Below are positions 30,401-36,658 of a DNA stretch of 64,000 nt, in pieces; position 1 is the stretch's first letter; each line of letters starts with the position of its first letter. Below the pieces are notes generated by a model. The model saw only the letters and a program-made list of their open reading frames with translations. It searched no databases and was not told where the DNA came from. Source of the DNA: Thermoplasmata archaeon (GTDB lineage Archaea > Thermoplasmatota > Thermoplasmata > Lutacidiplasmatales > UBA184); the NCBI GenBank assembly GCA_027315455.1, contig DAHUXZ010000009.1:2714-66713 (forward strand), given 5' to 3'. The position numbers were made by a program, and so were the translations under genes.

Positions 30401-30851
30401 ACGCGGCGAGGGCGACGCCCGTGACCGTGACGGGGTTGGCCGTCGGGTTCGTCAGGGCCGACGAGCTCTCCCAGTAGTACTGGGGGTTCGGGTTCTGGGG
30501 GATGACGGCGCAGGGGTTGCAGCCGTAGAGGTGGGCGTGGGCTTGGGGAGGGACCCAGACGCCCCACCAGCCGGGGGCGAGGCCGCCCGCGGTGTTGGCG
30601 GCGGTGAAGCTGAACTGGCCGCTCAGCGAGGCCGTCGTGGTAGCGGAGACCTGGTGGGTCGCGGACGAGATCAGGTTCACGGTGACCCCCGCAGGAACCG
30701 GCGGCGGCGACCCGCCGCCTGCCTGGTCGACGTACCCCAGTAGGGTATAGGTCGGTCCGGCCGCTCGCGCCCCCGGCACCGAGGCCAGCGAACCCGCCAG
30801 CACCAGCACGACGAGGGCCCACAACGCGGCTCGCGGTAGCCCGTTAACCAT
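27459..30851 (-). CDS. Large cell-surface glycoprotein with Ig-like/PKD domains and C-terminal membrane anchor
   Basis: Signal peptide, Thr/Ser/Asn-rich beta repeats, YQWAWGDG PKD motif, many NxS/T sequons, C-terminal TM followed by RRR. Confidence 0.85.
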   Translation of the reverse strand: MVNGLPRAALWALVVLVLAGSLASVPGARAAGPTYTLLGYVDQAGGGSPPPVPAGVTVNLISSATHQVSATTTASLSGQFSFTAANTAGGLAPGWWGVWVPPQAHAHLYGCNPCAVIPQNPNPQYYWESSSALTNPTANPVTVTGVALAAYNATIWGNVTYNGQPQGGALVELLQPTISGFVYANNTTVAKATNTTVVGEFSLSVPYGTWVLETIVPGNPNHYSLLQVTVNSAKQTVNPVVANYMVWGWVNQVANPSAHIPAGGNVTVVDTSTSYIYSAPTPAGGYYSFGAYPAGFTGTGARTFEVVLAPVGWQTVSYPVTISAASPNGSGPNPHIVLSRPQVPPAQYLTTLNFSSGFGKVAVATQATLGNDSVFPDLTNASVGQLWAQLALDWQHNLAFDAANLTHVLGWINASGPFFAAGQSNLAVAAAGGAVGFGQPTNYTFTNTTTCTATCGLTSSASLDLYWAQAYNVTGSLAASAKNYTVSFNFRHPTNGQVFNYTVVLPSGYVLAAGNPVPAQSRLAPAGPGGTWTSFTLVSLPSASPSSTATFSVVRYANVTAIVNVTTSNFAFSKANVLNQTRGHYEVIIGSGENATFSALNSTFPAGTNGTLYQWAWGDGTFTNTSSPTTYHTYTGAQSYAGSLTVTSSGGRTSATAFTVYTDNVPPTAQISTNATVLSSGSVSYVWVNWSRTLHFNASLSSDTVYSGAPVHGILSIASWNITSAGGYQTTANYTASSGVTNPSQRNLTLTFLGAGDYYTNGTLPFPFAATFYGWEYNVSLKVWDGAGHLASATLVVLVNDTEKPTPVLAIQDSAGRTISSSGIIEGSNGTADVVLVATNSTDPHNGSIASYFWNITNPVNRSANRTISQPAVQPGFKLPAKPQLWLAPQSKPYTVNLTVTDRAGNTAYTTSQLTVSINTSQRPVLSVSNLTTPTTMTEGTSYTVWVNVTNTIGKNSTAEALAVRFYLLSPGGGGSQIGIGGTVSYYNYSSSGVVATSPWAGVVNLPYNHTVRAQISFNPGRTGTWDLWANATATNEFVGDYTAGANQAHVQVTLNPNPTSQYIIYGAVGGAAVVLILLAVFFYRRRGMGGTPSSKAKPSSSSTGKASSSSTGKAGLERSSKKDEEDDEE
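27508..27555 (-). repeat. 24-bp tandem duplication in the cytoplasmic tail (SSSSTGKA x2)
   Basis: GCCTTCCCGGTGCTCGAGCTCGAC twice. Confidence 0.85.
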
Positions 30852-35739: not shown

Positions 35740-36312
35740 TTGTCCCCCATCCCGCCGACGGAGAGCCGGACCCTCCTGGCCGTCGGGGCCCGCCGGCGCG
35801 AAGCCGGTCGGCCGGACCGCGGCGAGATCGTCCAGACCCTCCGCCGCCTCGGGGGGGAGGGCGGCGGGCTGGTCGCGCTGTTCGACGCCCGGGCGATCGC
35901 CGGGGAGCGCCACCTCCTCTCCGCCTGGGCGCATCTCGGTCGCGCTCGCGCACGGGGCGAGGAGCGCCTGCGCGACCGGGGGGCCGAGTTCGCGCTGTTC
36001 GTCGCGGGGGACGACCAGCTCCCGAAGGCGCTCGGGAAGGTCGGCGTCGCGGCCGACACGGACCGCTTCGTCCTCGTCGTCGAGCGGCCGCGCACGATCG
36101 CCGATACCCTCGCCGCCTTCGGTCTCGAGGAGGACGCCACGGCCTACCCGGTCGGGCCCACCGCGAGGACCCTCGAGCGTCTCGGCATCTCCGCCGAGGA
36201 GCACGGGAGCGTCCCCCCGTCGGCGTGGGAGGGGCTCGTCCTCGAGCGCATCGCCCTGGTCGAGCTCGCCGGCGCCCATGCCGCCCCGGCCCGGTCGACC
36301 CCAAAGCATTAG
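35740..36312 (+). CDS. cgi121: KEOPS complex subunit Cgi121
   Basis: FDARAIAGERHL.SA, E..LFVAG..Q...AL.KVG, LVLERIAL. Confidence 0.8.
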   Translation: MSPIPPTESRTLLAVGARRREAGRPDRGEIVQTLRRLGGEGGGLVALFDARAIAGERHLLSAWAHLGRARARGEERLRDRGAEFALFVAGDDQLPKALGKVGVAADTDRFVLVVERPRTIADTLAAFGLEEDATAYPVGPTARTLERLGISAEEHGSVPPSAWEGLVLERIALVELAGAHAAPARSTPKH

Positions 36313-36352
36313 GCACGGGCGCCGGTGGCGGCGCGTCCGGCGGGGACGCGCT

Positions 36353-36457
36353 GCAGGCGTAATCTAGCGGTAGGATGTCAGCCTTCCAAGCTGACTACCC
36401 GGGTTCGAATCGCCGACGCGCCCGCGGGCGCGCGGCGCGGACGTCCCGGCGCCTGCA
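36353..36457 (+). tRNA. tRNA-Gly(TCC) with a 34-nt intron at position 59/60 (36410..36443)
   Basis: Acceptor GCAGGCG/CGCCTGC+A; anticodon arm TCAGC-CTTCCAA-GCTGA; T stem CCGGG/CCCGG with the TTCGAA^T loop interrupted by a BHB-bounded insert. CCA not encoded. Confidence 0.92.
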
Positions 36458-36488: not shown

Positions 36489-36512
36489 GCCGCGCTCGCT
36501 GCTCCGTACGCT

Positions 36513-36596
36513 GCTGAGGTAGCCTAGCCCGGCAAGGCGCCAGCCTTGAAAGCTGGTGGCGGCAACGCCCCGGGAGTTCAAATCTCCCCCTCAGCG
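36513..36596 (+). tRNA. tRNA-Ser(TGA)
   Basis: Acceptor GCTGAGG/CCTCAGC+G; anticodon arm CCAGC-CTTGAAA-GCTGG; long variable arm GGCG-GCAA-CGCC; T arm GGGAG-TTCAAAT-CTCCC. Confidence 0.96.
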
Positions 36597-36658
36597 TCCC
36601 TCCCGTCGCTCGCCCCCGCCGAACGATTATATCCCGCGGCTCGCTCGCTCGTCCTCCG

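Follow-up and report, generated by a model that had tools for sequence, protein, structure and literature searches.

The tRNA-Gly(UCC) gene analysed here is very probably a working gene, the sole one for this tRNA in its genome, with a 34-nt intron between tRNA positions 59 and 60 that is cut by EndA and whose flanking exons are joined by RtcB. Genomes of the family have about 14 such T-loop introns each, this one included. The host is an uncultured soil archaeon, represented by an assembly of 1.98 Mb in 87 contigs with a GC content of 72% and a completeness of 94%. The gene lies in a 64,000-nt stretch of one contig, which is referred to as the window. Taken alone, this single gene is an ordinary example of a known intron type. 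Less ordinary are the family-wide pattern and the enzyme context in which it occurs, as well as the lineage, which is an unexpected one.

The features of the locus are collected in Table 1. No CCA is encoded in the gene. Its 5' exon comprises the acceptor 5' strand, the D arm, the anticodon arm, the variable region, the 5' strand of the T stem and the T-loop bases 54-59. The acceptor stem is formed by GCAGGCG (36353-36359) and CGCCTGC (36450-36456) and is followed by the discriminator A at 36457. The D stem reads ATCT/GGAT, the anticodon arm reads TCAGC / CTTCCAA / GCTGA with the anticodon TCC at 36385-36387, and the variable region counts 4 nt. The two strands of the T stem, CCGGG (36399-36403) and CCCGG (36445-36449), are separated by TTCGAA, 34 bases and a T. 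The pairs between TTCG and CGGA are U-A, U.G, C-G and G-C, and this 4-bp helix stands between two opposite 3-nt bulges, which makes the intron a strict 3-4-3 hBHBh' (bulge-helix-bulge, BHB) motif in the definition given in PMC3239211. The outer flanking helix is the 5-bp T stem. The inner one consists of 5 + 6 bp, namely CGCCG (36411-36415) paired with CGGCG (36433-36437), a one-base bulge and then CGCGCC paired with GGCGCG around the loop CGCG. Excision of 36410-36443, with a cut after the second base of each bulge, gives a 71-nt tRNA with the T-loop TTCGAAT and the exon junction TTCGAA/T (the slash marks the joint), which falls between positions 59 and 60. As 36410 and 36444 are both T, a cut one base later would yield the identical product.

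Table 1. Coordinates of the tRNA-Gly(UCC) gene, its intron and associated features (window positions; loci of other families by locus and genome).
Feature	Position	Strand	Basis or remark
tRNA-Gly(UCC) gene with intron, 105 nt	36353..36457	+	Sequence, in-silico splicing (ARAGORN), partial Rfam match, orthologues
5' exon, tRNA positions 1-59	36353..36409	+	Sequence, MFE fold; nearly invariant in 81 orthologues
Central BHB helix, 5' strand TTCG (T54 T55 C56 G57)	36404..36407	+	Pairs with 36438-36441
5' bulge AAT; predicted cut after 36409	36408..36410	+	Sequence, MFE fold
34-nt intron at 59/60	36410..36443	+	Sequence, MFE fold, in-silico splicing
Intron inner helix and loop	36411..36437	+	MFE fold, compensatory changes, RNAalifold
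Central BHB helix, 3' strand CGGA, within the intron	36438..36441	+	Sequence, MFE fold, covariation count
3' bulge CGT with T36444 as position 60 after splicing; predicted cut after 36443	36442..36444	+	Sequence, MFE fold, orthologues
3' exon: T60, T stem 3' strand, acceptor 3' strand, discriminator A	36444..36457	+	Sequence
Intron-less tRNA-Ser(UGA), 55 nt downstream of the Gly gene	36512..36599	+	ARAGORN; Rfam 60.4 bits
T-loop introns in other families	L198 (G182), L199 (G259), L200 (G033), L194 (G272), L201 (G226)		Arg(UCU) or Lys(UUU)

The surroundings of the gene show some features of their own. An 8-bp inverted repeat, GCGCGTCC ... GGACGCGC, lies directly upstream (window 36331-36352), and the A/T-rich AAAGCATTAGG about 40 nt upstream (36303-36313) could be a TATA box. 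In two RNA runs, a tRNA-Gly 5' exon and tRNA-Ser(UGA) share one contig with a different spacer, so that relatives seem to have kept the Gly-Ser neighbourhood.

The MFE fold of the 105 nt (-57.1 kcal/mol; z -3.30) recovers the central helix, both bulges and the inner helix, and none of 200 shuffles was as stable. In the centroid fold, the weak 4-bp central helix is left unpaired. ARAGORN called two genes in the window, and the tRNA-Gly(UCC) gene was not among them. The Rfam tRNA model gave a partial match at 36357-36419, with 32.5 bits against a gathering score of 29 and spanning model positions 5-66 of 71. The expectation of the initial annotation that standard scans miss the gene is thus borne out for ARAGORN and only in part for the Rfam model. 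Upon in-silico splicing, the 71-nt product is called tRNA-Gly(tcc) by ARAGORN, and its final 28 nt (T arm and acceptor) are identical to those of the intron-less Gly(UCC) gene of a genome from another family (G039). Elsewhere in the window, ARAGORN calls a tRNA-Ser with anticodon ACT at 30691-30774 (-). It finds no Rfam tRNA match in the window or genome search and is probably a false call in GC-rich sequence.

Across the 94%-complete genome, no second Gly(UCC) gene was detected by Infernal, by BLAST with the gene or by two intron scans; at E ≤ 10, the Infernal tRNA search of the whole genome gave 40 matches. The initial annotation had named an intron-less Gly(UCC) gene elsewhere, combined with a missing spliced product, as what would refute its reading; no such gene is among those found by these searches. 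A 79-nt 'Gly tcc' call of ARAGORN on contig C19 was rejected, as Infernal does not match it at E ≤ 10 and no T-loop is present. The 102 calls of ARAGORN with unlimited introns, mostly spurious in a genome of 72% GC, were set aside. The other glycine tRNAs of the genome carry the anticodons GCC and CCC. The codon GGA accounts for 1497 of 204,184 codons in 391 long ORFs, which were picked by composition (GC3 > 0.88, GC2 < 0.55). The gene is the only Gly(UCC) gene found in the genome, and it is real and needed.

The intron is present in the Gly(UCC) gene of all relatives examined from the same genus (24/24, or 23/23 without the unpublished genome G019). Together with the window copy, all 25 genus sequences can be read with the intron at the identical site, its length being 30-34 nt. 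It also occurs in five out of five further genera of the family (genus g19 not among them). When one genome of each GTDB species was scanned with a sequence pattern, at least 119 stretches matched and, among the matches listed, 80 out of 80 public MAG loci carry the intron at the same place. Nearly all of these 80 loci are labelled 'Thermoplasmata archaeon', with one Candidatus Lutacidiplasma silvani and one Candidatus Lutacidiplasmatales. Adding the window copy to the 80 listed public loci resulted in an orthologue set of 81 distinct sequences. The arrangement is kept in every one of them, with the central helix fully paired (4/4) in 70 and paired at three of four positions in 10. The 3-4-3 geometry is found in 80 of the 81, the exception being a 4-nt 3' bulge, and the intron length ranges from 28 to 34 nt. 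The first intron base, which is the third of the 5' bulge, is T in 35, A in 29, C in 10 and G in seven sequences. Because it is A, C or G in 46 of the 81, the cut is fixed at 59/60, and of the two candidate T residues it is the 3' one that is retained.

The exons are nearly invariant across the 81 orthologues, but part of this is fixed by the search pattern: it sets the T stem, TTCRAA, T60 and the acceptor 3' strand, so that their invariance is uninformative. Only the 3' strand of the central helix and the inner helix were free to vary under the pattern. Over the 81-sequence alignment, 96.5% of the cells are paired (96.9% for the central helix), compared to only 36-45% in controls with slid partners. 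Compensatory double changes occur in all seven counted pairs of the inner helix, and none of 500 shuffles reached the observed values. The RNAalifold consensus of these orthologues predicts the acceptor stem, the anticodon stem, 4 bp of the T stem and the inner helix; the central helix and the D stem are not predicted in it. Bases, MFE fold, orthologues and covariation agree on the gene, its anticodon, the 59/60 position, the intron limits and the strict BHB motif, all as initially annotated. As a separate observation, position 33 is C rather than the near-universal U in 52 of the 81 orthologues (loop CCTCCAA), while the window gene has U33 (36384).

Within the same genome, 59/60 introns were found in 16 genes for 14 tRNA species: Ala-GGC, Arg-TCG, Arg-TCT, Asn-GTT, Asp-GTC, Gln-CTG, Glu-CTC, Gly-TCC, His-GTG, Leu-TAG, Lys-TTT, Ser-CGA, Ser-GCT and Ser-GGA. 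Three sources were pooled for this inventory, namely weak Infernal matches inspected by eye, a BHB scan (66,163 candidates, 12 of which yield a tRNA across the joint) and a T-arm-anchored scan (2069 candidates, 34 ARAGORN calls). Two of the 16 genes are second copies on the 543-bp contig C74. The His, Asn and Asp genes among them are the sole genes found for those tRNAs. With about 41 tRNA species counted in the genome, an approximate figure, roughly a third carry a 59/60 intron, and nearly all non-canonical introns of the genome sit at this one position. All 16 genes fit the BHB motif. The central helix is paired 4/4 in eight of them and 3/4 with A57.G in the other eight: where base 57 is G, the opposite base is C, and where it is A, the opposite base is G, with Glu-CTC (opposite T) as the exception. 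The 3' bulge reads ACT in 13 of the 16 genes and CGT in Gly. A recent transposition of introns was considered and rejected. Compared with each other, the inner parts of the 14 introns show no more similarity than shuffled sequence does (the best pair, 0.44, was reached in 17 of 200 shuffles and the mean similarity in 10 of 200). Nothing points to recent copying. Apart from these introns, tRNA-Arg(GCG), Lys(UUU) and Leu(UAG) seem to contain a further insertion of about 30 nt in the D-loop, for Lys and Leu on top of the 59/60 intron (C16:8015-8081 (-), C30:9413-9501 (-) and C12:8416-8560 (-), with a second copy on C74).

The distribution of T-loop introns was mapped with a covariance model, R1, built from the 16 T arms of the genome itself, in which it scores the 16 genes at 46-63 bits and the next match at 21.6 bits. 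All 24 genus relatives contain 7-14 matches. In the same survey of relatives, three out of 10 other families showed one or two matches, and in f2 and f3, the order's two sister families, R1 recorded no T-loop intron of any tRNA in six genomes. Over the order, for genomes at least 80% complete and with 40 candidates scored per genome, all 132 family genomes from seven genera have 3-14 matches (129/129 without the three unpublished genomes G019, G148 and G149), as against 0 of 6 genomes in the sister families. Over the class, the family is positive in 18/18 genomes (17/17 without the unpublished G148). One to three matches occur in genomes of f6 (16/18), f27 (5/6), f24 (2/5), f25 (1/2), f26 (1/3) and f11 (1/6), and the other 20 families have no match in any genome searched. 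By eye, the f6 matches are tRNA-Arg(UCU) genes with a canonical intron at 37/38 and another of about 22 nt at 59/60, and those of f27 are tRNA-Lys(UUU) genes with a 59/60 intron. The presence of Arg(UCU) and Lys(UUU) introns in other families implies that T-loop introns in these two tRNAs predate the family.

Conversely, Gly(UCC) is intron-less with a normal T-loop in all five other Thermoplasmata families examined. In the sister families f2 and f3, no Gly(UCC) gene was located; their matches turned out to be a Gly(CCC) gene and one for another tRNA, in each of which the T arm is intact and a long intron sits at 37/38, and were discarded. The 37/38 intron of f2 tRNA-Gly(CCC) itself varies from about 19 to about 95 nt in L180-L182 (G029, G025 and G027; 41-48% GC), and the longer ones contain repeated AAAGAAAGG units. 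Judged from this distribution of sequences, the Gly(UCC) intron was very probably gained at or before the family ancestor. A few T-loop introns are older than the family, which then added many more, Gly(UCC) included.

As to the splicing machinery, RtcB is encoded in the genome (PF01139, 578.8 bits, G000 C18:5775-7079). EndA was found neither with Pfam PF01974 at E ≤ 0.01 nor by tblastn with the EndA of the relative G011 at E ≤ 10 in the 94%-complete assembly. It was not found although at least 20 tRNA genes of the assembly need splicing. By synteny with the nearest relative (G018), the flank of the EndA gene matches C4:1102-1856 at 84% identity and the similarity ends where EndA would begin. 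We take the absence to reflect a probable assembly gap. EndA is present in 23 out of 24 genus relatives (22/23 without the unpublished G019) as a single ORF with two tandem PF01974 domains. In these 23 relatives, no second PF01974 gene was found at E < 0.01; extra matches had E > 0.1 or were pieces of the same EndA gene. The 347-aa ORF of G011 aligns with residues 52-292 of the alpha'2 EndA of A. fulgidus (1R0V; E 8e-30), and over its whole length the M. jannaschii enzyme can be aligned with the C-terminal unit of this ORF. The Tyr, His and Lys of the catalytic triad are aligned. Judging by these alignments, the relatives' enzyme is of the two-unit alpha'2 type and co-linear with A. fulgidus EndA. 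Into the latter, the Crenarchaea-specific loop (CSL), which bears a lysine and lies beside the active site, has been inserted at residues 174-178, replacing E174-L178 (Hirata et al. 2011, PMC3241643). At the CSL site, the EndA of the relatives reads YGSRVGDRLELSL, compared to YGSEKGDLVTLSL in A. fulgidus, with no CSL-like insertion. Neither was any family-specific indel of more than two residues found when five family enzymes were compared to 11 of other Thermoplasmata families.

According to PMC5829648, only (alpha-beta)2 and epsilon2 EndA cleave non-canonical introns and alpha'2 enzymes are narrow, and the share of disrupted tRNA genes is described to follow the EndA type (PMC3239211, PMC5829648). 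Wild-type A. fulgidus EndA hardly cut a D-loop BHB intron in the experiments of PMC3241643. T-loop introns in combination with the alpha'2 EndA of the relatives therefore place the family outside the published enzyme rule. Nevertheless, the family's motifs are of the strict kind that is said to suit all EndA types: the strict 3-4-3 motif is reportedly cut by every type (PMC3239211), and archaeal EndA is described to read the secondary structure of the RNA, not the tRNA body (PMC12397907). These two reports weigh against the best surviving alternative, in which another nuclease or an unrecognised EndA partner, and not the alpha'2 EndA of the relatives, removes the intron. The described narrowness of alpha'2 enzymes, the failure to find EndA in this assembly and the lack of an insertion in the family EndA relative to sister families without T-loop introns do favour such an agent. 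We nonetheless consider it distinctly improbable, also because no second PF01974 gene was seen in the relatives at E < 0.01 and because T-loop introns, one to three of them, occur as well in other Thermoplasmata families whose enzyme is of the same type.

With EndA as the cutting enzyme and RtcB as the ligase, the following course is proposed. In the precursor, the T stem would continue into the 4-bp helix formed by the T-loop bases 54-57 and the last intron bases, which would be flanked by the two 3-nt bulges and closed by the GC-rich intron hairpin. EndA would cut after the second base of each bulge, i.e., after 36409 and after 36443, whereupon RtcB would join the exons to a 71-nt tRNA with the T-loop UUCGAAU. 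The CCA would be added after exon ligation. As bases 54-57 are paired in the precursor, T-loop modification and formation of the elbow would have to wait for splicing. We infer that cleavage and ligation happen and that the alpha'2 enzyme performs the cut.

The joint 36409/36444 was not seen in the contigs of four metatranscriptome runs, taken from six RNA runs that share short words with the stretch, although such contigs cannot show absence. The intron-containing form of relatives occurs in two RNA runs (X16 record 2, X17 record 8) and may represent precursor RNA or carried-over DNA, while other pieces from the RNA runs come from other organisms, whose unrelated tRNA-Gly genes have no intron. 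Spliced RNA not being seen in these contigs, EndA not being found in the assembly, the missing ARAGORN call and the partial Rfam match would all suit a pseudogene, i.e., a Gly gene in which a permanent 34-nt insertion has destroyed the function, with GGA being read in some other way. Such a gene would hardly be the sole Gly(UCC) gene found in a genome that uses GGA codons, nor keep nearly invariant exons and an intron structure maintained by compensatory changes in 81 orthologues. Thirteen other tRNA species moreover share the design, including the only His, Asn and Asp genes found, which renders a pseudogene even less probable than a different nuclease. Least probable of all is an RNA that is functional without splicing and has an enlarged T arm, as in some aberrant organellar tRNAs, for which reading the lack of a direct sign of splicing in the metatranscriptome contigs could be cited, since the conserved feature is the geometry read by EndA (4-bp helix and 3-nt bulges in 80 of 81 orthologues) and not the sequence or length of the extra arm, the elbow cannot form with bases 54-57 paired, and intron-less orthologues have a normal T-loop.

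The reading of a spliced 59/60 intron can be set beside known systems. It resembles the canonical 37/38 introns in its 3-4-3 motif, the predicted cut, the ligation by RtcB and the alpha'2 enzyme (A. fulgidus 1RLV/2GJW, T. acidophilum 2OHC; PMC6379350). It differs in that the outer helix is the T stem instead of the anticodon stem and that the exon bases of the central helix are the T-loop bases 54-57. BHB introns at 59/60 were described in 2011 for ARMAN-2, with a strict motif in Pro-GGG and a relaxed one in Cys-GCA that was cleaved in vitro (PMC3239211). Position and protein-spliced BHB kind are the same there, and many tRNA genes are disrupted as well (56% in ARMAN-2; PMC3239211). ARMAN-2, however, belongs to another phylum-level lineage, its introns occur at many positions rather than nearly all non-canonical ones at 59/60, and its EndA is of the three-unit epsilon2 type and has a specificity loop of its own, in contrast to the two-unit alpha'2 enzyme of the relatives without a CSL-like insert.

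Other Thermoplasmata families share the position and the motif in their Arg(UCU) and Lys(UUU) introns, as well as the 3' end GAAAC/T (GAAAG/T in G226; the slash marks the cut). Yet, they have only one to three T-loop introns per genome and none in Gly(UCC) (5/5 examined). In the Thermoproteales, 59/60 is among the intron positions. Crenarchaeota, above all the Thermoproteales, are similar in that BHB introns outside 37/38 affect many tRNAs per genome and were gained within the lineage, but their EndA is a heterotetrameric (alpha-beta)2 enzyme with CSL that is broad and handles often relaxed motifs (PMC3241643), whereas the relatives studied here have an alpha'2 enzyme and motifs that are strict or close to it. 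Our literature search found no earlier work on non-canonical tRNA introns in Thermoplasmatota, with the caveat that '59/60' itself is not searchable. The paper that named Lutacidiplasmatales ran tRNAscan-SE in archaeal mode, and the word 'intron' has zero occurrences in its main text (PMC9287336). For annotation, this means that a third of the family's tRNA species are invisible or partial to finders that do not consider non-canonical introns. As such finders miss genes with T-loop introns, genomes could wrongly seem to be without some tRNAs, among them those for Gly(GGA), His, Asn and Asp.

For tRNA biology, the point of interest is that all 132 family genomes searched have matches to T-loop introns and that the relatives have a plain alpha'2 EndA, co-linear with that of sister families without such introns. 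We tentatively propose, at somewhat less than an even call, that this family of soil Thermoplasmata of the Lutacidiplasmatales type as a whole keeps a BHB intron at a sole non-canonical site, 59/60, in roughly one out of three tRNA species, and does so with only a plain alpha'2 EndA that lacks a specificity loop. If true, this would have three consequences. The textbook link between EndA type and non-canonical introns would fail, and alpha'2 enzymes would be able to process T-loop introns in vivo. Position 59/60 would be a hot spot, first for the old Arg(UCU) and Lys(UUU) introns shared with other Thermoplasmata families and then, in the family ancestor, for about twelve more tRNAs including Gly(UCC). 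The gained introns would then have been kept, possibly by breaking up the T-arm attachment site of integrating elements, in line with the proposal of Randau and Soll that introns disrupt such sites (reviewed in PMC4090602).
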